A DNA stretch of 64,000 nt from a virus: IMG/VR virus record IMGVR_UViG_3300045988_098681. One strand, 5' to 3'. Below the pieces are notes generated by a model. The model saw only the letters and a program-made list of their open reading frames with translations, did no database searches and was not told the origin of the DNA. This document shows positions 9,902 to 64,000 of the stretch, in pieces. The stretch's first letter is position 1. Every line of letters begins with the position of its first letter. The translations under genes were made by a program, and so were the position numbers.

Positions 9902-10443
9902 CAAGCGAACAATCAAAATTTGCAGAAGAAAATATTCGCCTCATGTATCGCTATTTCAACATGCACAACATTACAAACGAGGACGATAAAGCAGACTTGT
10001 TTGAATACTATTGTAAAGTAATTGAATGTTACGATGATAAAAAAGGAAAATTCAGCACCCTGCTCTATTTTTCCCTTGACAGATATCGTAGACATATTTA
10101 TAATTATAAGTATAATAAGTGTAGATTTTCTGATAAGCCGAGTATATCTTTAGACTCAACTTATGATGACGAAAACGATTGGCTACAAGAGCTAGTTTGT
10201 GAAAGGGACGTTGATATTGAGTTTGTGGAGTTCTTGGATATTTGTGAGCGTGTTTATGATAAACTTGCAACTAAGAAAAATAGTTACAATCGAAAACTCG
10301 AAGATAGAGAACTCTTTACAATGCTCTTGGCAGGCTACACGAGAAAGGAGATTGGCAATATGTATAATATCTCACAACAAGCATTGTCTGTGAGGATTAA
10401 CAAAATTAAAGCAATTTTTTATAAGGAAATGGAGGAATGTTGA
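9898..10443 (+). CDS. sigma-70 family (phage-type) sigma factor 2
   Basis: The N-terminus EENIRLMYRYFNMHNITNEDD parallels EDNIKLVYKFCARYNITDEDD of the previous gene. C-terminal HTH is YTRKEIGNMYNISQQALSVRINK. Confidence 0.6.
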   Translation: MTSEQSKFAEENIRLMYRYFNMHNITNEDDKADLFEYYCKVIECYDDKKGKFSTLLYFSLDRYRRHIYNYKYNKCRFSDKPSISLDSTYDDENDWLQELVCERDVDIEFVEFLDICERVYDKLATKKNSYNRKLEDRELFTMLLAGYTRKEIGNMYNISQQALSVRINKIKAIFYKEMEEC

Positions 10444-11748
10444 TGAGAGTAGAAGAATGGCTTGGCGAAGATAATAAGATTGGGTTAGATATTTGGCACA
10501 AAAAGTATCAACATGGCAATGAGACATTCGATGAATGGCTTGATAGAGTAAGTGGAGGTGATAATGACCTAAGAGAACTCATTAAAAGTAAAAAGTTCTT
10601 ATTTGGTGGCAGAGTGCTTGCGAATCGAGGTGTGCCAGATAGTGGGAATTTTTATAATTGCTTTTCTGCCGGATATGTAAAAGACGATTATGCAAGTATT
10701 ATGGACGTATTAAAAGAAGTTGGTATTACGTTCAAGTATCAAGGTGGTCAAGGAATCTCCATGTCGAAACTTCGTCCAAAAGGAACAAAAATTGGCGATA
10801 ATTATGAGTCAGATGGTATTGTTCCTTTTATTGAAATGTTCAATTCTGTCACTAAAGGTACTTCGCAAGGCGGTGCAAGAAAAGGTGCTTTGATGATTAG
10901 CTTAGACATCAATCACAAAGAAGCCGAAACATTCATCAAGCTAAAAACTGATCTTGACGCTGTAACAAAAGCGAATCTCTCTATGGAAATAGACGATGAG
11001 TTTATGACTGCGGTGCAAGAGTTCTACTATGATGGGACAATAAAAACATTACATAAGAGATACAACTACAATGGGCATGTTGTGGAATATGATATTACGC
11101 CGATTGAATTGTATAAATTGATGATGGAAGTTGTATGGGACTACGGGGAGCCGGGGTGTATCTTTGTAGACGAATTTAGGAACAACAACTTTTTAGAGCT
11201 TGATAACGAGTATCAAATAGAAACTTGCAATCCATGCGGAGAACAACCATTAAAAGCTCGTACAAGCTGCTTGCTTGGCTCATTAAACTTATACGAGTTT
11301 GTTGAAAACAAGTTTACAAGTGATGTGTATTTTAACTTTGAGGAATTTGCAAAAGCTATTAAAGTAGCCTCAAATGCACTTGATAACATCATCGAAGAAA
11401 ATGCTCCAAGGCTTCCTAAAGAACTGGAGCAATACAAACAAAACGCTTATGATTGGCGTAATATGGGGCTTGGTGTATTCAACTATGCACACATGCTCAT
11501 GGCTATGGGGCTTAAATACGGTAGCGAAGAAGCGTTGGCTTTTACTGATACGCTATTTTACACTATGATGATAGAAGCCATTATATCAAATGACGAAAGG
11601 GGCAAAGAAAAGGGTAATTATCCAAAGTTCAAAGGCGGGTTAGTACAAAAGTCCACGATGTTTAGAAACCATGCCCCCGAAGAACTTTTACAAAACGGTG
11701 CGCTACATGCTAGAAATTGCACGTTGTTATCTATCGCGCCAACTGGAT
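10437..11748 (+). CDS. nrdJ: class II (adenosylcobalamin-type) ribonucleotide reductase, exon 1
   Basis: Contains the NPCGEQPL active-site loop and LLSIAPTG. The ORF breaks right after the conserved APTG at a stop codon that I place inside the intron. Confidence 0.75.
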
Positions 11749-12051
11749 TAACACAATAGGTTCAGTATAAACTATTTTAATTGCTGGAAACCCCTTAGAG
11801 CTACTTAAACTACAACGTAGGTATGAAATAAAACCAAGCGTGAATGTCTGAAAATTAAGTAGATTGGGCAATCAGCAGCTAAGACTCGAATAGAGTAAAG
11901 TTCAACGACTATCCCGCAAGGGAGTACACAATAAGCAAGAAATGATTGTGGAAAAGGATAGATACTATTTATAGTATAAGATATAGTCTATTCTTATAGG
12001 AAACTATAAGCAGTTATATAACGGCAAATGTCTTGCGAACATTTGTGAATG
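11749..12051 (+). mobile_element. group I self-splicing intron (ORF-less) in nrdJ
   Basis: P1 pairs exon CUGGAU (11743-11748) with GUUCAG (11760-11765), giving a U-G pair at the splice site. Core elements are UUAAUUGCUGGAAA, GUUCAACGACUA (11900-11911) and AAGAUAUAGUC (11978-11988), so P7 is GACUA/UAGUC. The intron ends in G, and joining the exons restores the frame (APTG-LKTIATMVNGAGGVEPEF). Confidence 0.75.
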
Positions 12052-56995: not shown

Positions 56996-57135
56996 ACCCT
57001 TTCTCTCCTTTTGTTCTGTGTAATGCACAACTTTTTCACTTGTATTTATGCTGTTATTATGAGAAGCCCAAGCGCATTTTCGTATTGTGCATGATAGCCT
57101 TTTCGCTAAACGAATCCCTTGTACTTCGGGTTAAT

Positions 57136-57210
57136 TGGCATACCTACTACGAATCGAACATAGATATACGGTTTTGGAGACCGCTGTTTTCCCAATTAAA
57201 CTATAGGCAC
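57136..57210 (-). tRNA. trnW: tRNA-Trp (anticodon CCA)
   Basis: Folded by hand. Acceptor GTGCCTA/TAGGTAT (two G-U pairs), D stem GTTT/AAAC, anticodon stem GCGGT/ACCGT with loop CTCCAAA, T arm CTATG-TTCGATT-CGTAG, and an encoded CCA. Confidence 0.8.
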
Positions 57211-57273
57211 ATATCAGATGAGTTAAGTTTCTCTAACTCACCAAGTACGCATCCGAAAACACATACCCCAATT

Positions 57274-57636
57274 TTAAAATAATTCTTGTTCAGTTATTCC
57301 AATATTTTCTTCTGTATATGGTAAAAACAAATGACCAAATCTACCACGCACTTCTCCATTATCTTTTGGAAATCTTAAAAAATGTTTGTAATCTGTTAAT
57401 AGCTTAGGACAATTTTTTTCTACCCACTGTTTAGTTGCAGTAATACAATAATCCGAAGACGTATCTACAAAATTAAATACTACAAATACTACACATAATT
57501 TATTTTCTTTTACCCAATCTTCATTGTCAAATGGAATTTTTAAATTGTCTTCAAACCATGTGATAAAAGGTTCATCATCAGGAAAATCTCTTTCTAAAAA
57601 CCAATTATTTAATTCAAAATAAATTATATTTTCCAT
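57274..57636 (-). CDS. hypothetical protein
   Basis: 120-aa ORF between the tRNAs. Confidence 0.55.
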   Translation of the reverse strand: MENIIYFELNNWFLERDFPDDEPFITWFEDNLKIPFDNEDWVKENKLCVVFVVFNFVDTSSDYCITATKQWVEKNCPKLLTDYKHFLRFPKDNGEVRGRFGHLFLPYTEENIGITEQELF

Positions 57637-57666
57637 TACACCGTCCTAAACTTTCTATAAATTTAA

Positions 57667-57743
57667 TGGTGATGCCACCGAGGCTCGAACTCGGACTTTT
57701 CAGCTTGAAAGGCTGATGTGTTAACCAGTTACACTATGGCACC
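57667..57743 (-). tRNA. trnE: tRNA-Glu (anticodon UUC)
   Basis: Acceptor GGTGCCA/TGGCATC, D stem GTGT/ACAC, anticodon stem TCAGC/GCTGA with loop CTTTCAA, T arm CCGAG-TTCGAGC-CTCGG, and an encoded CCA. Confidence 0.8.
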
Positions 57744-57821
57744 ATACGAAGAAAGTATAATAGATAATTTCTAAAATTTGTATTAAATCCCACAATAAGA
57801 AATTATCAAACATAAAGGGAT

Positions 57822-57898
57822 TGGCGGGACATCTAGGATTCGAACCTAGAATCTTGCGGTTAACAGCCGCCTGCTCTAACCAGCTGAGCTAATGTCCC
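57822..57898 (-). tRNA. trnN: tRNA-Asn (anticodon GUU)
   Basis: GGGACAT...GCTCAGCTGGTTAGAGC...GGCTGTTAACCG...CTAGGTTCGAATCCTAG ATGTCCC G CCA: a canonical cloverleaf with one G-A at the top of the anticodon stem. Confidence 0.8.
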
Positions 57899-58196
57899 AT
57901 ATGGATGCAGGTACTCGACACTCCCCTTAGCTAAATCAAAGGATTTTAGGTGGCGATAGTTCAATAACTTATTTGCCTAACATGTGCAAACAAGTTTATT
58001 CATGCTCAGCCACCTAGAACTTTCATTAAGAAAAATTGTTGGAAACGACAGGACTCGACGTTACGTTCAACTAAAAAAAGTTGATTCCTTATTCATCGTG
58101 CTCTGTTTTGCCGAAGCTATTCCAGTTGGTATAGCACTCCAAAGGCTTAAATTCCCATGTAGCGATTTGGTACATATATGTAGTCACTTCTAGTTG
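57899..58196 (-). ncRNA. candidate TnpB omega (right-end) RNA region
   Basis: TnpB guide RNAs derive from the 3' end of tnpB plus the transposon right end. This 298-nt ORF-free stretch holds two copies of a CGAGU(A/C)CCUG motif (plus-strand 57908-57919 and 58049-58059). Ends are not defined. Confidence 0.4.
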
Positions 58197-59321
58197 TTAA
58201 ACTACATATTTCATTAAATTGATTGCTGCGTTGTAATCACGATCTATTACGGGACCGCATTCTGGACAGACGTAGATTCTGTCGCTGAGCTTTAGGTTTG
58301 ACTTAATCGTTCCGCAACAAGAACATGTTTTGGAAGAAGGGCAGAACCGATCTACCTGTACGAACTCGATCCCATTCCACTCACACTTGTATTTCATCTG
58401 ACGAACAAACTCATAAAAGCATTGTTCCTGAATTACTTTTGACAGGTGTTTATTCTTCATCATTCCAGACACATTAAGGTTCTCCATGACGACCCGATAT
58501 GGACGCATAAATACGAGTTTATGTGTTGCTTGATGAATATGATTTTGTCTTGTCATTGAAATGTGATAGGAAAGTTCTCGAATTTGTTCTTCGACTTTAA
58601 GAATATTAGCCGTCTTTTCAAAATTACCATTTTGATAATACTTACGAGAAACTTTACGTTGAAGGCGCTTCAATTTCTTTTGCTTTTTCTTCATGTTGGA
58701 AGTTTTGTTAATGTTCTTAATGACAATATTTTCATCGCCAAAAGCTACACTACAAAGCGCTTTGATTCCAAGGTCAATACCCATGGACTTATTTGTCAGC
58801 TCCAATACTTGGTTCTCACACTCAAAGCCAACTGTTAAAATCCATTTCTTATTGACATATGATATTCTTGGATTGTAAAATTTTGCTTCTTTTCCTAGTG
58901 GGACATTGTAGTTTGTCCGATATTTTACTTTACCGAGCTTTGGAATTGTTACAGATTCTTCGGTAAAGTAAGTTCCATCGTTTCTGATTGGATAATTAGG
59001 TTTCGATTTCTTTTTACTTTTAAATTTAGGAAAACCTGCGCCACGAAAAAAGTTTGAATATGCTTTATCAAGGTCTCTTAATGTTGTTACCAAGCTCGCA
59101 TTTAAAACTTCATTAAGCCAAGCATATTGTTCTTCTTTTTTCAATGGAGTGAGTTTCTTGATAAGATCAAAAGATGATAATTTCTTGCCGATGGAAGAGT
59201 ATTCCACTTTTTGAATCTCTAATCCCCAATTCCAGATAAACCTACAACACCCAATGTGTTTCCACATCAATTCTTCCTGCTCCTTAGTTGGGAGCAGTCT
59301 GATCTTGTACGTTTTCATCAT
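58197..59321 (-). CDS. tnpB: TnpB (IS200/IS605-family OrfB, RNA-guided RuvC nuclease); no tnpA nearby
   Basis: N-terminal YKIRLLPTKEQEELM, RuvC D (MGIDLGIKA), E (VVMENLN), zinc finger CPSSKTCSCCG...CPECG, and terminal RDYNAAINL. Intact at 374 aa. Confidence 0.85.
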   Translation of the reverse strand: MMKTYKIRLLPTKEQEELMWKHIGCCRFIWNWGLEIQKVEYSSIGKKLSSFDLIKKLTPLKKEEQYAWLNEVLNASLVTTLRDLDKAYSNFFRGAGFPKFKSKKKSKPNYPIRNDGTYFTEESVTIPKLGKVKYRTNYNVPLGKEAKFYNPRISYVNKKWILTVGFECENQVLELTNKSMGIDLGIKALCSVAFGDENIVIKNINKTSNMKKKQKKLKRLQRKVSRKYYQNGNFEKTANILKVEEQIRELSYHISMTRQNHIHQATHKLVFMRPYRVVMENLNVSGMMKNKHLSKVIQEQCFYEFVRQMKYKCEWNGIEFVQVDRFCPSSKTCSCCGTIKSNLKLSDRIYVCPECGPVIDRDYNAAINLMKYVV

Positions 59322-59399
59322 TTACCTCCTTTTCTTTAAGATTTTATGAAAAGGAGAGTGGCGGGAACTTACCCCGCACATGCGTTTCTCTCTTGTTGA

Positions 59400-60426
59400 A
59401 TATATGAGCGAGACTTTGGGAACCGTTTTTACCTATCGACATCAGCATAGTGGTATTCAACGTTATCGAGTATGCTCCCGCCTTGCCATCTTCCAATGAC
59501 TGAAAATCTCGCAGAAATCTTAAGTTATTTTACTAAGCTAAACAACTAAATAACATGTGCCATGAACCTTCGTTCTACCTTCCACAATCATCGTCATATT
59601 CAACCAGTAAGTAGACAAGTCTGTGCCACAGGGAGCTACCCTATGACATCTTGCCTAGATGGAAACCATCAAATCTTACAAGGGGCTCTTTCTACCCTTA
59701 ACTTTCACAAAGCATTCAGAATTATTTTCTTCAAATCTTCATCATTTGACATCATTTGACTTGTAAAATTACTACAGTCATTGCTTTTTGCTACTCGTAC
59801 CTTGACCCTATCTTATACTTTGTCTTTCGACAATCTCACAGCAAACTTCCTTAGTGGCACTTCCGTACTTATGCCGCTTGCCACAGCGACACAGCCCTCG
59901 GATTCGGCTTACGCTTTTAACGCTTAGCTTCTATTGTGGAAGCGATAGGACAGTGTTTTTAACAAGGATTGCTTTAGCACACACCCCCAGAACCATTCTA
60001 TTCATAAGTGGCATCTTGCATCTCACAATGCAAGCCTTTGACCGTTACCAAAGCTATCGTTTTGGCTAGGCTATTCTTACCCGCAGGTGGGTAGTGTTCT
60101 CTGCACCATGCTCTTGGTCTACACAGAGTTATGGCACACATTATTTAGTTGTCTAAAAATGGCTACGGGATTGAGTACCGCCCTCAACAATAGTCGGGTC
60201 AAAGCCGACTGCGTTCACTTGTTCGCCATCCCGCAATATTTGGTTGGTATACGATTGAAACCATATACCAACCGTAAGGAAAAAAATATGAAAAAAGCGT
60301 TTTTCTTTTTTATTGTGGCGCACCAAATAAATTTTATGGATGTCCTTTTAGGAGGTAAAACACAAAAAACAGAAAGGTTGGTTTTAGGTGCGCCACTCGA
60401 ATATTTTGTTGTTTTCTCTCTTTACA
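59400..60426 (-). ncRNA. unassigned ~1 kb highly structured RNA candidate (large ornate ncRNA or ribozyme-like leader)
   Basis: Lies downstream of a consensus promoter. The transcribed strand has no ORF of 60 aa or more. G+C is locally ~50% against AT-rich flanks. It has multiple perfect 6-10-bp helices, one of them strand-specific through a G-U pair. The 3' boundary is a guess. Confidence 0.55.
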
Positions 60427-60432
60427 CTTTTC

Positions 60433-60461
60433 ATTATATAGAGATGCTTGCATTTTGTCAA
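60433..60461 (-). promoter_or_regulatory. consensus sigma-A promoter driving the 1-kb RNA/tnpB/tRNA region
   Basis: Minus strand reads TTGACA (60461..60456), exactly 17 nt, then TATAAT (60438..60433), starting 16 nt after the stop of the upstream gene. Confidence 0.7.
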
Positions 60462-60476
60462 GCAAAATTTCAAATT

Positions 60477-61619
60477 TTACAAATTTATTTTATAAGTACA
60501 AACATCATTGTCAAACACTTGTAAAACTTGATAAGGTTTTGTATTACATCTCAAGCTCATAGCAAACTCGTCAATGCCCGATATAGACCCATTGACTACA
60601 ATCTCTGTACCATTGTCATCTTTTATGTTCATGTGATGAATATGCCCAAAATAAATTCTATCCGGCACTTTACCAAGTAAATTAACAGAATGTAGTTTAA
60701 TATTTGACAAAGAATCTTTATCCCCATGTGTCATAAAAACTAATTGGTCTTTTACCTTAAATGTGATCCAATCCTCTAACCCATTCATGCAAACTCTCAC
60801 ATTCGGCAACCTAAGTTCAATATGCTTAAAAATCAATCTTTCAAAATTTTCAGCAGGCATATTTGATTTCTTATCGGCATTTACTCTTGAGTGATTTCCA
60901 ATAACTCCATAAACCTTGGCTTCTGGAATATATGCCTTGAGTCCATTGACAAAGTTAGCCAAAAGTTCTCCGACATTGATAACTTGTGTAATCAAATCTT
61001 CTTCCGCAGCGATACGACTTTGTAAATGAATTGTGCCACTAATCAAATCACCTGCTAATCCGAGGTGTAATTTTTGTACCTTATGTAGTTGACAATAATA
61101 GATTGTTTTCTTGAGCAAAGTTTCTAAACGTTCATTGGCAATATCTACATTGTACTCGTTTAGAACATTATCTATTAAAAGTCCATAGTGAAAGTCAGAC
61201 AAGATAAGAACCGCCTCTACATTGGTAGAATTTGGTTCATGCACACTATTGAGTTTTAATGGCTCAATATCTTCAATCGCTTTTACCATTAAATCCTCTA
61301 GGTGTTCATATCTTGCACTTTCTCTAAGCAACTTGTTATACTCACGCTTTTGATCTTGCACTCTGCACTTCTCTTTATAAAGTTCTTGGCGCAAAGTTTC
61401 TAACCTAGCAGATTCCTCGCTTGTATATCCTTCTTCGAGCTTTTCAAGCATATACTTATATACTCGATAGCCACAATAGCGACCGCCAGCAAAAGATTTC
61501 CTTAAAGAGTCAGGGTGAACATCTAGTTCAAGTTCATCTACCATCTCTTCCCAATCTTTATTCGTTGTTCCTTCTACTTTATCTACGAGCAAATCAAGCT
61601 CGTCTTGATAATTTCGCAT
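60477..61619 (-). CDS. calcineurin-like metallophosphoesterase with N-terminal helical domain
   Basis: Motifs LILSDFHYG (DxH), GLAGDLISG (GD), GNHS (GNH), MTHGD and GHIHH (GHxH). Confidence 0.75.
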   Translation of the reverse strand: MRNYQDELDLLVDKVEGTTNKDWEEMVDELELDVHPDSLRKSFAGGRYCGYRVYKYMLEKLEEGYTSEESARLETLRQELYKEKCRVQDQKREYNKLLRESARYEHLEDLMVKAIEDIEPLKLNSVHEPNSTNVEAVLILSDFHYGLLIDNVLNEYNVDIANERLETLLKKTIYYCQLHKVQKLHLGLAGDLISGTIHLQSRIAAEEDLITQVINVGELLANFVNGLKAYIPEAKVYGVIGNHSRVNADKKSNMPAENFERLIFKHIELRLPNVRVCMNGLEDWITFKVKDQLVFMTHGDKDSLSNIKLHSVNLLGKVPDRIYFGHIHHMNIKDDNGTEIVVNGSISGIDEFAMSLRCNTKPYQVLQVFDNDVCTYKINL

Positions 61620-63001: not shown

Positions 63002-63277
63002 CATTTGTTTTATCTCTGGCTCTTTATCCAGAGCTTCTTTAAGTTTCCTTAAAGTATCGGACTATATCTTCACCATGCACTTTCGTGTTTAGGTGTTCAG
63101 CACTCGTGGGGGGATTATTGCTAGTTCTGCTCACCCCCTAGTCTCTGAGCCTTCCTATCTACTAAATGAACCTCGATAGGTTTGGCATATGGTTAGCATA
63201 TGCTTTTGCACTTAGCTTTCCACTATTCACTGAATATTTTTTACTAAATGTTTCCACTTAGCTGACCCATTTTACTA
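63002..63277 (-). mobile_element. group I self-splicing intron (ORF-less) in the RNA polymerase gene
   Basis: Core elements are GGCUCAGAGACUAGGGGG (GACUA at 63143..63139) and GAAGAUAUAGUCCG (UAGUC at 63064..63060). Downstream lie a CUUUAAG-GAAA-CUUAAAG hairpin and a CUCUGG/CCAGAG hairpin. The 5' splice site is after GCU (63278), with candidate IGS GGUCA. The 3' end is at G63047 or G63002. Confidence 0.65.
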
Positions 63278-64000
63278 AGCCACTACACTCAGAATACACA
63301 CATAATCATCATACTCTTTGTCTGTAAAACTATATCCATAAGTCAACGCAAGCTGCGCAAGATTACTAGACTCACCTATTGCCATTTGTGCTTTGGCAAG
63401 GTTGTTGTCTATAACGGCGTGATTGTACATGGATAAGTCATAATGATTTTTTTCTTTTGGAATGTTGTTTACAATGGTTGGATGGTTTATGTAGCAATAT
63501 TTGGCGTAGTCGGCAATGTCATGTTGATTTGTTACAAATACTTGGTCAGAATCCCAGTCGCAGCCATTTAGTCGGTCTTGGACATCTGTGTGTTTGCAAT
63601 TCATTGCAATACATTGCTCCCCAATATAAAAATATTTATCTAAAATATCGCTCTTAATATTTTTAAGTCCAATAATATTCGACTTACTATTGTGCGGGCT
63701 TCTAAATCCTGCTAAATACTCGTTTGCTCCAAACCTCTTTGTGTAACATTGAATACAATCCTGCTCTTGACCAAACGTATTGTCTTTTTCTACATCTTCA
63801 CCCACACTATGTAATAACATGGCATAAGGAGAGCCAACCATTACTAAGTTATCACCCTCTTGCAACACTTTACCAAACTTTAGATTTTTTACATAACCAT
63901 CAATTATTTTTTTCTTCCTGCTCCTAAAATACTCACTTCGCACAAATTCTGAATCCTGCTCGCACAATGCGACCAAAACCTCGTAGTCATTAGAAAAGTT
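63278..64000 (-). CDS. YonO/cellular-RdRP-like two-barrel RNA polymerase, exon 1 (continues beyond window)
   Basis: FRSPHNSKSNIIGL...CIAMNCKHTDVQDRLNGCDWDSDQVFV parallels the RdRP/YonO signature (R-x-P...D ... G-G-D-x-D-G-D-x-y-x-V), here with a DxDxD catalytic loop. The frame is open to position 64000. Confidence 0.45.

Follow-up and report, generated by a model that had tools for sequence, protein, structure and literature searches.

Introduction

Very large, structured RNAs free of protein are few in bacteria and phages, and ROOL RNAs are among them. The family was described in 2017 (Weinberg et al., PMC5737381; Cousin et al., PMC5643018). Its members occur in phage and prophage genomes, close to tRNA arrays or inside them, and co-transcription with these arrays has been suggested (PMC5737381, PMC12990946). 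For the L. salivarius ROOL RNA, the mature ends were determined by circular RACE and a promoter was mapped 225-450 nt upstream (PMC5643018). Cryo-EM structures followed in 2025 (9MDS, 9J3T, and 9J6Y; PMC12286853, PMC12990946) and revealed cages in the form of an octamer and a hexamer (PMC12286853, PMC12990946). A homo-oligomeric nanocage is now known for the env-120, E. faecalis, and L. salivarius ROOL RNAs (PMC12990946, PMC12286853), in which the linker is disordered and located inside the cage (PMC12286853).

Two other described systems are relevant to the locus considered here. GOLLD is likewise a large ornate RNA of phages and prophages that lies near or within tRNA arrays and forms nanocages, and some of its members carry tRNAs in their linker; its sequence and fold are, however, unrelated to those of the RNA described below. 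IS607-type TnpB proteins (~390 aa), in turn, are paired with a RAGATH-18-derived guide RNA (PMC11061315).

This article describes a ROOL locus in a 64,000-nt stretch of viral DNA (IMG/VR record IMGVR_UViG_3300045988_098681), referred to throughout as the window. The region between positions 59400 and 60461 is very probably an operon of phage small RNAs that chiefly yields a ROOL RNA, which would be cut out and assemble into a cage. With its perfect promoter, covarying leader helix, and tRNA-derived cloverleaf 7 nt before ROOL, the locus provides a compact and well-delimited example of the family.

Organization of the Locus

The initial annotation read the region as a promoter-linked, large ornate non-coding RNA in a GOLLD- or ROOL-like context, and the Rfam model for ROOL bears this out, placing the RNA on the minus strand, as that annotation had predicted. 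It is not, however, a single structured RNA of about 1 kb as had been proposed, since the region is a mosaic of several separate elements. Listed in the direction of the predicted transcript, these elements and their neighbors are:

60433..60461, minus strand: putative sigma-70-type promoter; -35 TTGACA at 60461..60456, 17-nt spacer, -10 TATAAT at 60438..60433
60315..60396, minus strand: leader helix; GUGGCGCACC (60396..60387) pairs with GGUGCGCCAC (60324..60315), enclosing a CU-rich loop of ~62 nt
60242..60273, minus strand: hairpin of 14 bp with a 4-nt loop (MFE fold), between leader and cloverleaf
60160..60235, minus strand: tRNA-Gln(UUG)-derived cloverleaf, located with a purpose-built tRNA-Gln covariance model; CCA encoded at 60162..60160
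60153..60159, minus strand: 7-nt spacer UUUUUAG between CCA and the first ROOL model position, read from the sequence
59545..60152, minus strand: full-length ROOL RNA, 608 nt (Rfam RF03087)
59854..59884, minus strand: ROOL pseudoknot joining a hairpin loop to a strand downstream of it, GUGGCA (59884..59879) / UGCCAC (59859..59854)
59725..59795, minus strand: variable A-rich ROOL linker (insert region of the Rfam alignment)
59408..59512, minus strand: conserved structured element, ~105 nt; 10-bp closing stem GCGAGAUUUU / AAAGUCUCGC, three-way junction
58085..59400, minus strand: IS607-type TnpB element neighboring the RNA; left end approximate (59385-59401)
59321..58197, minus strand: tnpB, 374 aa
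58145..58085, minus strand: RAGATH-18 guide-RNA scaffold, 63.1 bits (gathering score 44.9); ~50 nt past the tnpB stop codon
57898..57822, minus strand: tRNA-Asn(GTT), downstream of ROOL (ARAGORN and Rfam)
57743..57667, minus strand: tRNA-Glu(TTC), downstream of ROOL (ARAGORN and Rfam)
57210..57136, minus strand: tRNA-Trp(CCA), downstream of ROOL (ARAGORN and Rfam)

All six local helices that had been pointed out earlier are complementary at the positions given for them. Four of the six lie outside ROOL, in a leader and a tRNA-like element that had gone unrecognized.

The ROOL RNA

When positions 57000-60700 were scanned with the Rfam covariance models (E <= 1), ROOL was the sole match to a large-RNA family. 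Its score of 269.5 bits (E = 1.5e-60) exceeds the gathering score of 99.1, and the match covers model positions 1-574 of 574 and is not truncated. Among the family members scanned, this score ranks in the bottom half. Judged by this match, the core of the region is a full-length ROOL RNA, a new member of an already known family and therefore not a new kind of RNA; the new ribozyme class once considered for it can accordingly be dropped in favor of RF03087.

Covariation across the family was recovered. An RNAalifold consensus of 21 family members, the window included, contains 68 pairs, of which 57 have changed on both sides, and in the terminal helix (~60139-60131 with ~59566-59558) all nine pairs vary in a compensatory manner across the 21 sequences. 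The helix proposed at 59854-59859 / 59879-59884 is complementary at all six positions and forms the ROOL pseudoknot. Both of its segments are conserved in the Rfam alignment, outside the nested pairs, and the two sides change together in the family (UGGCA/UGCCA, GGAGU/ACUCC, UGGUA/UACCA, and UUGACA/UGUCAA); this comparison covers one of the reported ROOL pseudoknots, and the contact may be intra-chain or inter-chain. The 7-bp helix at 60015-60021 / 60028-60034 is likewise complementary, as had been described.

The window RNA resembles RF03087 in its terminal helix, the conserved motifs ACAAUAGA, GAGUAGC, and UUCUGAAUG..GUGAAAGUU, the variable linker, and the pseudoknot, as well as in its phage origin and the co-oriented tRNA genes around it. 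What sets it apart is that its sequence is new and comes from a lineage of ~100-kb human-gut phages; that model position 1 is preceded, across a 7-nt spacer, by the CCA of a cloverleaf whose D and T loops are non-canonical; that a TnpB element separates it from the downstream tRNAs; and that its linker has a private 10-nt tandem duplication (59760..59751; GTCAAATGAT) missing from the five close relatives. In the phage collection, close matches to the window ROOL were confined to human-faecal phage contigs, and a blastn comparison with plasmids returned zero matches.

Promoter and Coding Potential

The TTGACA-17-TATAAT promoter first noticed at 60461..60433 on the minus strand matches the consensus at 12 of 12 positions. 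Perfect sites of this type number two across the whole window, against an expectation of 0.01 from shuffled sequences, and relatives from four lineages have both hexamers at the equivalent position, separated by a spacer of varying sequence. The site probably works as a promoter, with a transcription start predicted at ~60426.

As the initial annotation stated, 59400-60461 has no minus-strand open reading frame of 60 aa or more, the longest being 57 aa; the plus strand has frames of 145, 71, and 65 aa, and Pfam and PHROG searches with six reading frames from the region gave zero matches. The accompanying statement that the opposite-strand frames lack ribosome-binding sites needs an exception at the internal ATG at 60290 (plus strand), which has AAGGA 9 nt upstream and makes this frame not strictly RBS-less; the stretch is not conserved in relatives. 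A small protein encoded opposite the leader helix was also considered and rejected, as other lineages have different, interrupted frames there (reverse complements translated by eye). The G+C content reported for 59881-59940 (31 of 60 nt) is exact, and the region is indeed richer than its flanks, with values of 0.423 for ROOL and 0.405 for the whole region compared with 0.362 for the window and 0.35-0.36 for the flanking genes.

The Leader

The predicted transcript begins with a leader of ~274 nt before ROOL, and a leader segment of 278 nt has a folding z-score of -4.2. The helix at 60315-60324 / 60387-60396 is a perfect 10-bp helix, as had been claimed, and is also present in the MFE fold. 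The helix is kept in four of four related lineages, in which the central pair is G-C, U-A (L099), or A-U (L104), a comparison that, like those of the cloverleaf and the 3' element described below, draws on only three to four independent lineages in this phage group. On the evidence of these alignments, the leader helix covaries among related phages. When the Rfam covariance models were applied to 60140-60440 at E <= 10, only sub-threshold chance matches were obtained. The location of a predicted promoter a few hundred nucleotides before the mature 5' end is shared with the L. salivarius ROOL RNA, whose mapped promoter offers a precedent for a processed leader of ~274 nt here.

Downstream of the leader helix, the pairing described for 60242-60251 / 60264-60273 was confirmed as part of the 14-bp hairpin. 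A homologous hairpin (GGTTGGTATG...CCAACC) occupies the equivalent place in related locus L104, directly before a genuine tRNA-Gln. As a separate observation, the 5' arm of the leader helix and the CU-rich loop give a visual impression of likeness to the 3' end of 16S rRNA (anti-Shine-Dalgarno).

The TnpB Element and the 3' Element

The neighboring TnpB carries the Pfam domains OrfB_IS605, HTH_OrfB_IS605, and Cas12f1-like TNB (PF01385, PF12323, and PF07282), matches the transposase family phrog_506 (E = 1e-115), and has its closest genome relatives, at 40-60% identity, mostly in Clostridia MAGs. It resembles the described IS607-type TnpB with RAGATH-18 (PMC11061315) in its domains and in the guide RNA that follows the stop codon, and differs in that the window element lacks tnpA. 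Sequence similarity to relatives without the insertion sequence stops at ~59402. Among close relatives, tnpB lies between ROOL and the tRNAs in the window and L001 only; L102 has no tnpB, yet ~19 nt at the end of the RAGATH-18 scaffold remain there.

This arrangement bears on the suggestion that the region contains a divergent IStron-type ribozyme fused to tnpB. No group I intron match was found upstream of tnpB, the gene belongs to a separate element of the IS607 type that brings a RAGATH-18 guide RNA of its own, and the close relatives L094, L095, and L109 keep ROOL in the absence of tnpB; the IStron candidate was consequently rejected. By the same comparison of related genomes, ROOL is independent of tnpB. 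In 57000-60700, no match to GOLLD, HEARO, OLE, raiA, or group I or group II introns was obtained with Rfam at E <= 1; group I introns do occur elsewhere in the window, at 11713-12010 and 63037-63286. GOLLD itself had been a candidate and was discarded, since scans of the window at the gathering threshold and of the region at E <= 1 gave no match to it.

A more general form of this alternative holds that the region is no independent RNA gene at all and is instead a decayed protein gene or a tnpB-linked IStron-type ribozyme. The plus-strand frames of 65-145 aa and the adjacency of tnpB could be cited in its favor, but those frames are without Pfam or PHROG counterparts, the ROOL match is accompanied by covariation of the RNA type, intron matches are absent from the region, ROOL persists in relatives that lack tnpB, and the guide RNA sits at the 3' end of tnpB; its probability is regarded as negligible.

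The conserved element between ROOL and the TnpB element is supported by an RNAalifold consensus of four sequences (the window, L001, L104, and L103), in which 7 of 33 pairs have changes on both sides. It has no Rfam match at E <= 1, and an nhmmer search over all fetched loci found copies in this phage group only. A scan of IMG/VR with TGCTGATGTCGAYAGGT gave 17 loci, all of them chance occurrences and mostly coding-like by eye.

tRNA Genes Around ROOL

In the relatives of the window phage, tRNAs flank ROOL on both sides, and the slot before ROOL is occupied by a genuine tRNA-Gln, by a tRNA-Met, or by neither. In 18 IMG/VR loci selected for adjacent tRNAs, with tRNA positions taken from ARAGORN, the upstream tRNA lies -4 to 131 nt from ROOL in the 11 loci that have it adjacent, and two further loci have gaps of 258 and 333 nt. 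On the downstream side, 13 loci show gaps of 3-167 nt between ROOL and the tRNA. Over 56 distinct ROOL loci, 180 of the 181 tRNAs within 2.5 kb of ROOL are co-oriented with it, and 19 of the 56 loci, for which both flanks were available, have an immediately adjacent same-strand tRNA.

The tRNA link of ROOL is not universal, as in 25 of the 56 IMG/VR loci the 2.5 kb on either side are free of tRNAs. The L. salivarius pMP118 locus (NC_007930), one that has been studied by experiment, carries a ROOL RNA scoring 130.4 bits with no tRNA-like element upstream, so that a tRNA-like handle cannot be a family-wide property. The variants of the upstream slot in the related phages constitute a natural series on ROOL end formation, one that bears on whether the link between ROOL and tRNAs is functional or only transcriptional.

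A Proposed Small-RNA Operon

From these elements we infer how the locus is expressed: its transcription and read-through, where and by which enzymes the transcript is cut, and the assembly of the window sequence into a cage. A minus-strand transcript would start at the strong, constitutive-type promoter at 60461..60433 and would comprise, in order, the structured leader, the tRNA-Gln-derived cloverleaf, ROOL (60152..59545), and the further small structured element. No terminator-like sites were found on the minus strand from 61700 to 57000, so that the transcript probably continues by read-through into the inserted TnpB element and then into tRNA-Asn, tRNA-Glu, and tRNA-Trp. The precursor would be cut to release ROOL, whose two ends would be joined by its terminal helix. 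In many phages the probable cutters are tRNA-processing enzymes (RNase P, RNase Z, and trimming exonucleases) acting at abutting tRNAs, and in the window the cloverleaf appears to occupy the upstream tRNA slot. The tRNA elbow, in which the D-loop GG meets T-loop U54-U55/A58, is recognized by RNase P; the cloverleaf lacks these nucleotides and may therefore be a poor substrate of this enzyme. An encoded CCA, as found in the cloverleaf, blocks RNase Z in Bacillus, and the cut at the ROOL 5' end may therefore come from another nuclease. The excised RNA of ~600 nt would then fold and self-assemble as a hollow homo-oligomeric cage, as the three solved ROOL RNAs do.

The tRNA-Gln-Derived Cloverleaf

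The helix 60165-60171 / 60228-60234 had been recognized as closing a multi-stem junction, and this pairing stands, as does its strand specificity, with seven of seven positions pairing on the minus strand only, by virtue of one G-U. The identity of the junction as a tRNA-like cloverleaf had escaped notice, and the segment 60241..60228, likened at the time to a group I J3/4-P4 element, is in fact spacer plus the 5' acceptor strand of the cloverleaf. The helix at 60192-60197 / 60205-60210 also proved complementary. Standard tools are silent on this element: ARAGORN does not call it at default or relaxed thresholds (to 60%), the relaxed run giving implausible alternatives only, and the Rfam tRNA model does not match it at E <= 10. 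Its ancestry consequently had to be established with a covariance model built for the purpose from 13 phage tRNA-Gln genes, which matches it over its full length at 48.9 bits (E = 1.4e-11). In the same window the three accepted tRNAs score 45-60 bits with this model and the best chance match scores 12.4.

The cloverleaf has stems of 7, 4, 5, and 5 bp and a 7-nt anticodon loop (CUUUGAC), and it keeps U1-A72, U8, A14, U33, G53-C61, C56, the discriminator G73, and the encoded CCA. The acceptor, anticodon, and T stems pair completely, and the sole D-stem mismatch is 13:22 (A-A). It departs from tRNAs at the elbow, where the D loop ACAAGUGA lacks G18-G19 and the T loop is GGCGGUA in place of UUCRANN, with G54, G55, and G58 where tRNAs have U54-U55 and A58. 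The MFE fold is a cloverleaf, of unexceptional folding energy (z = -0.56). Phage tRNA-Gln(UUG) genes are thus alike in stem lengths, anticodon loop, U1-A72, G73, CCA, and slot, and differ in the D-loop GG, the T loop, and recognition by tRNA finders. With its elbow nucleotides gone and no call from those finders, the element is classified as tRNA-derived and not as a tRNA gene.

Genuine tRNA-Gln(UUG) genes lie between the equivalent promoter and ROOL in L104, L099, and L103, and that of L104 stands immediately before ROOL, in the position taken by the cloverleaf in the window. Relative to the L104 tRNA-Gln, approximately seven cloverleaf stem pairs have changed on both sides with pairing kept, by a reading of the two sequences. 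Among six closely related and non-independent sequences, none of the 76 columns of the cloverleaf is variable, whereas the leader has 14 variable columns out of 190 and ROOL has 29 out of 608; the cloverleaf ranks first in conservation along the locus in this set, with ~4-6 variable columns expected from the flanks. These comparisons show the cloverleaf, at the level of sequence, to be a conserved descendant of tRNA-Gln.

Several readings of the cloverleaf were weighed. It could be a decaying tRNA-Gln pseudogene with no role, the ends of ROOL being the work of other nucleases or a result of its own stable fold, and tRNA proximity only reflecting shared transcription of a small-RNA island. This explanation, which we consider possible though rather unlikely, accords with the rejection of the cloverleaf by ARAGORN and the Rfam tRNA model, with the loss of elbow nucleotides from both loops, with the lack of any tRNA-Gln before ROOL in lineage B (L096-L098), and with the abundant processed ROOL that pMP118 makes without a tRNA-like element. 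It is at odds with stems that pair except at 13:22, including those double-changed pairs, with the retention of U8, A14, U33, G53-C61, G73, and CCA, and with the invariance across the six relatives.

The cloverleaf might instead be a working, if unusual, decoding tRNA-Gln(UUG), with ROOL merely situated within a functional phage tRNA array. U1-A72, G73, and UUG, all present here, are tRNA-Gln identity features in E. coli; the cloverleaf is also complete, with an intact anticodon loop and an encoded CCA, and odd T loops occur in other ARAGORN-called tRNAs of these phages. The substitutions G54, G55, and G58 together with the missing G18-G19 nevertheless abolish the conserved elbow contacts, the standard finders score it nil, and its T loop is found in no other of the tRNAs parsed in these loci, 247 of 269 of which have TTC. 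We judge this reading to be clearly improbable.

A third reading, put forward with still greater reserve and as a decidedly long shot, is that the cloverleaf is a retained and repurposed cis element, its stems kept and its elbow remodeled, that could serve as a processing handle for the ROOL 5' end or, more speculatively, as a tRNA-like partner or cargo that remains attached to the ROOL cage or is recognized by it, for which the linker-borne tRNAs of GOLLD provide an analogy. If true, such a role would tie the function of ROOL to tRNA handling.

The odd T loops observed in other ARAGORN-called tRNAs of these phages are AGCGTTA, ATCGTAA, and TGCAAAT.

A full-length ROOL RNA behind a consensus promoter

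The region 59400-60461, in which the initial annotation had proposed a promoter-driven, ornate non-coding RNA of about 1 kb with GOLLD/ROOL-like context, contains on its minus strand a complete member of the ROOL family of large phage RNAs, as placed by scanning the complete window against Rfam:

60152..59545, minus strand: ROOL RNA (RF03087)

At 269.5 bits (gathering score 99.1; E = 1.5e-60), the match spans model positions 1-574 of 574, untruncated; no other large-RNA family has an Rfam match in the region at E <= 1. The RNA therefore belongs to a known, structurally solved family, and what is modestly new at this locus is its surroundings, namely a tRNA-Gln-derived cloverleaf directly before ROOL, a covarying leader helix, and a 3' element without an Rfam match.

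The simpler features reported for the region were all recovered. A perfect TTGACA-17-TATAAT promoter lies at 60461..60433 (minus strand), and the 64-kb window holds two such sites (0.01 expected from shuffles), the other being at 10076-10104 (plus strand). On the minus strand, no open reading frame (ORF) overlapping 59400-60461 reaches 60 aa, the longest having 57; those on the plus strand measure 145, 71, and 65 aa, and a Pfam and PHROG search of all of these gave no match. The count of 31 G+C in 60 nt at 59881-59940 is exact, and G+C is 0.42 in the core versus 0.36 in the window and 0.35-0.36 in the flanking genes. All six proposed helices are complementary as described, with two inside ROOL and four in the approximately 274 nt between promoter and ROOL.

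An alignment of the window RNA with 20 ROOL RNAs from IMG/VR phage contigs, folded with RNAalifold, yields 68 pairs, 57 of which have pair-keeping changes on both sides, including the nine-pair terminal helix (~60139-60131 / ~59566-59558) that closes the ROOL domain. Absence of covariation, named beforehand as evidence against a structured RNA, is thus the opposite of what was found. Helix 60015-60021 / 60028-60034 corresponds to the hairpin that is capped by GUGA in the ROOL model. The second internal helix, 59879-59884 / 59854-59859, pairs a hairpin loop with a downstream strand; in Rfam, both strands are conserved and take no part in the nested structure. Because its two sides change together across ROOL members (UGGCA/UGCCA, GGAGU/ACUCC, UGGUA/UACCA, UUGACA/UGUCAA), it is, on comparative evidence, a real pseudoknot, the covariation being compatible with pairing within or between chains. 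Cryo-EM of ROOL has revealed that one such covarying contact is actually made between chains (PMC12286853). A 10-nt tandem duplication, GTCAAATGAT, at 59751-59760 in the variable linker is found only in the window among six close relatives.

The leader and a tRNA-Gln-derived cloverleaf

Three structures occupy the minus strand between promoter and ROOL (L-numbers here and below are ROOL or related phage loci retrieved for comparison):

60396..60387 / 60324..60315, minus strand: 10-bp leader helix enclosing a CU-rich loop of ~62 nt
60273..60242, minus strand: 14-bp hairpin with a homologue in L104
60235..60160, minus strand: tRNA-Gln(UUG)-like cloverleaf, 7 nt 5' of ROOL

Relatives were gathered via the upstream exonuclease-like gene (61619..60477, phrog_284), giving eight viral and 10 metagenomic loci. 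In the four lineages with ROOL no more than ~650 nt after this gene, the promoter hexamers and leader helix are kept but the loop sequence is not. At its center the helix has a G-C pair in L096 and the window lineage, U-A in L099, and A-U in L104. In L103, ROOL follows the gene at a distance of 1646 nt, and the ROOL motif was not found in L101, L107, or L108. The helix directly follows the promoter in the window, L096, L099, and L104. In the window lineage the loop carries ACCUCCU; any likeness of the loop to the anti-Shine-Dalgarno sequence of 16S rRNA is no more than an impression.

Helix 60165-60171 / 60228-60234 is complete on the minus strand only, via one G-U, as reported. It had been taken to close a multi-stem junction (60165-60234, with 60192-60210 inside); the structure is real, but its identity is that of a cloverleaf, with a four-armed minimum-energy fold. 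Numbered as a tRNA, the cloverleaf carries U1-A72, U8, A14, the anticodon loop C-U-UUG-A-C, G53-C61, C56, and discriminator G73, with CCA encoded at 60162..60160. It was called neither by ARAGORN (default and relaxed thresholds) nor by the Rfam tRNA model because the D loop, ACAAGUGA, lacks GG and the T loop is GGCGGUA. A covariance model was built from 13 tRNA-Gln(UUG) genes that ARAGORN had called in phage ROOL loci. In an unfiltered search of the entire window with this model, the cloverleaf matched at full length with 48.9 bits (E = 1.4e-11); the three accepted window tRNAs scored 60.4, 56.1, and 45.4 bits, whereas chance matches reached 12.4 at most. The order in L104 is homologous hairpin, canonical tRNA-Gln(UUG), ROOL, and a tRNA-Gln also lies upstream of ROOL in L099 and L103, which by position marks the cloverleaf as the counterpart of a genuine tRNA-Gln. 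Compared by eye with the L104 tRNA, some seven stem pairs have both bases changed yet remain complementary (1:72, 3:70, 11:24, 28:42, 29:41, 31:39, 49:65). Among six close relatives, 0 of 76 cloverleaf columns vary, as against 14 of 190 in the leader and 29 of 608 in ROOL. Model score, position, paired changes, and invariance together argue that the cloverleaf is tRNA-derived and apparently under constraint, with an elbow that departs from that of standard tRNAs.

The segment once likened to a group I J3/4-P4 element is simply spacer plus the 5' acceptor strand of the cloverleaf. Group I introns do occur in the window, although two rather than the four suggested reach the Rfam gathering threshold:

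11713-12010, plus strand: group I intron
63037-63286, minus strand: group I intron, conserved in L094, L095, L096, L101, and L001

Non-canonical T loops also occur in several ARAGORN-called phage tRNAs (L096:6342-6417, L104:4337-4412, L099:6334-6407, and other loci), the usual TTC T loop being present in 247 of 269 parsed tRNAs of ROOL loci. In AGCGTTA and ATCGTAA the 54/58 pair seems to have been swapped, and G55 is present in TGCAAAT, TGCGAAC, and TGCAATT; the tRNA-Met(CAU) genes examined among them also have D loops without GG. Instead of decay, these loops may reflect a consistent alternative form of the elbow.

The 3' element and the TnpB neighbor

Downstream of ROOL, the minus strand carries:

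59512..59408, minus strand: ~105-nt structured element just 3' of ROOL, with a 10-bp closing stem and three-way junction (counterparts L104:5315-5436 and L103:6388-6505)
59321..58197, minus strand: tnpB, 374 aa, with OrfB_IS605, HTH_OrfB_IS605, and Cas12f1-like TNB domains
58145..58085, minus strand: RAGATH-18 (63.1 bits), ~50 nt past the tnpB stop codon

Across the window, L104, and L103 lineages, seven pairs of the 3' element have changes on both sides. Rfam contains no match to it, searches beyond the window's phage group did not find it, and it may be an undescribed small RNA.

RAGATH-18 is paired with IS607-type TnpB nucleases as guide RNA (PMC11061315). The adjacency of tnpB had left room for an IStron-type ribozyme fused to it, but ROOL occurs without tnpB in L094, L095, and L109, and similarity to relatives lacking the insertion sequence ends at ~59402 and returns past the RAGATH-18 end. 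As judged from these alignments, the TnpB element is an independent insertion between ROOL and the downstream tRNAs and not an IStron. Comparison of L102:5100-5210 with window 58035-58109 shows that L102, although lacking tnpB, still has the final ~19 nt of the RAGATH-18 scaffold (GAGCACGATGAATAAGGAA) with the same right flank, which suggests a deletion derivative that lost most of the element from an IS-bearing ancestor.

tRNA context and proposed processing

Searching IMG/VR with a conserved ROOL motif yielded 92 stretches, among which 56 distinct loci have both flanks available. In 31 of these 56 a tRNA lies within 2.5 kb of ROOL and in 19 a same-strand tRNA lies immediately beside it; of the 181 tRNAs nearby, 180 point the same way as ROOL. 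At 18 loci picked for adjacent tRNAs and measured from Rfam ROOL coordinates and ARAGORN tRNA positions, the upstream gap is -4 to 131 nt (11 loci; 258 and 333 nt in two others) and the downstream gap 3 to 167 nt (13 loci); in L003, ROOL sits between tRNA-Ser and tRNA-Tyr with gaps of -4 and 4 nt. Since ROOL has already been placed near or within tRNA arrays, with co-transcription possible (PMC5737381; PMC12990946), this proximity is confirmation rather than discovery. The place of ROOL in the array shifts between related phages, as in L103:4137-6500, where six tRNAs stand in a row (Gln, Ser, Tyr, Glu, Trp, Leu) and ROOL comes after the last of them, tRNA-Leu, rather than immediately behind tRNA-Gln. 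The tRNA sets downstream vary among near-identical relatives, and matches of ~80 nt to the Rfam tmRNA model directly beside ROOL (L056:7793-7873, L035:2471-2553) more likely represent tRNA-like elements than complete tmRNAs.

In the favored scheme, the promoter would drive a minus-strand precursor comprising leader, cloverleaf, ROOL, and 3' element. As no terminator-like site was found on this strand from 61700 to 57000, the precursor probably extends across the TnpB element as far as tRNA-Asn, tRNA-Glu, and tRNA-Trp. ROOL would then be excised, the flanking tRNA or tRNA-like structures being obvious candidates for nuclease recruitment. Two features of the cloverleaf speak for caution here: its remodeled elbow would weaken RNase P recognition, and its encoded CCA would block RNase Z in Bacillus-type systems. 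In Lactobacillus salivarius, the mature 520-nt ROOL has been mapped by circular RACE and the promoter lies at -225..-450, a processed leader that provides a precedent for the leader length seen here (PMC5643018). That locus has no tRNA-like element upstream, and hence a tRNA handle for processing cannot be general across the family. By analogy with the cages solved as octamers and hexamers (PMC12990946; PMC12286853), the excised RNA would fold and assemble into a cage. The sequence comparisons establish family membership, the layout of the locus, conservation, and covariation; transcription, the cuts, and assembly are predictions.

The window lineage is a human-gut phage of ~100 kb (related contigs 98-108 kb), perhaps with a host among the Clostridia, and in the phage collection it closely matches only the unannotated fecal contigs MT837385 and MT839428.
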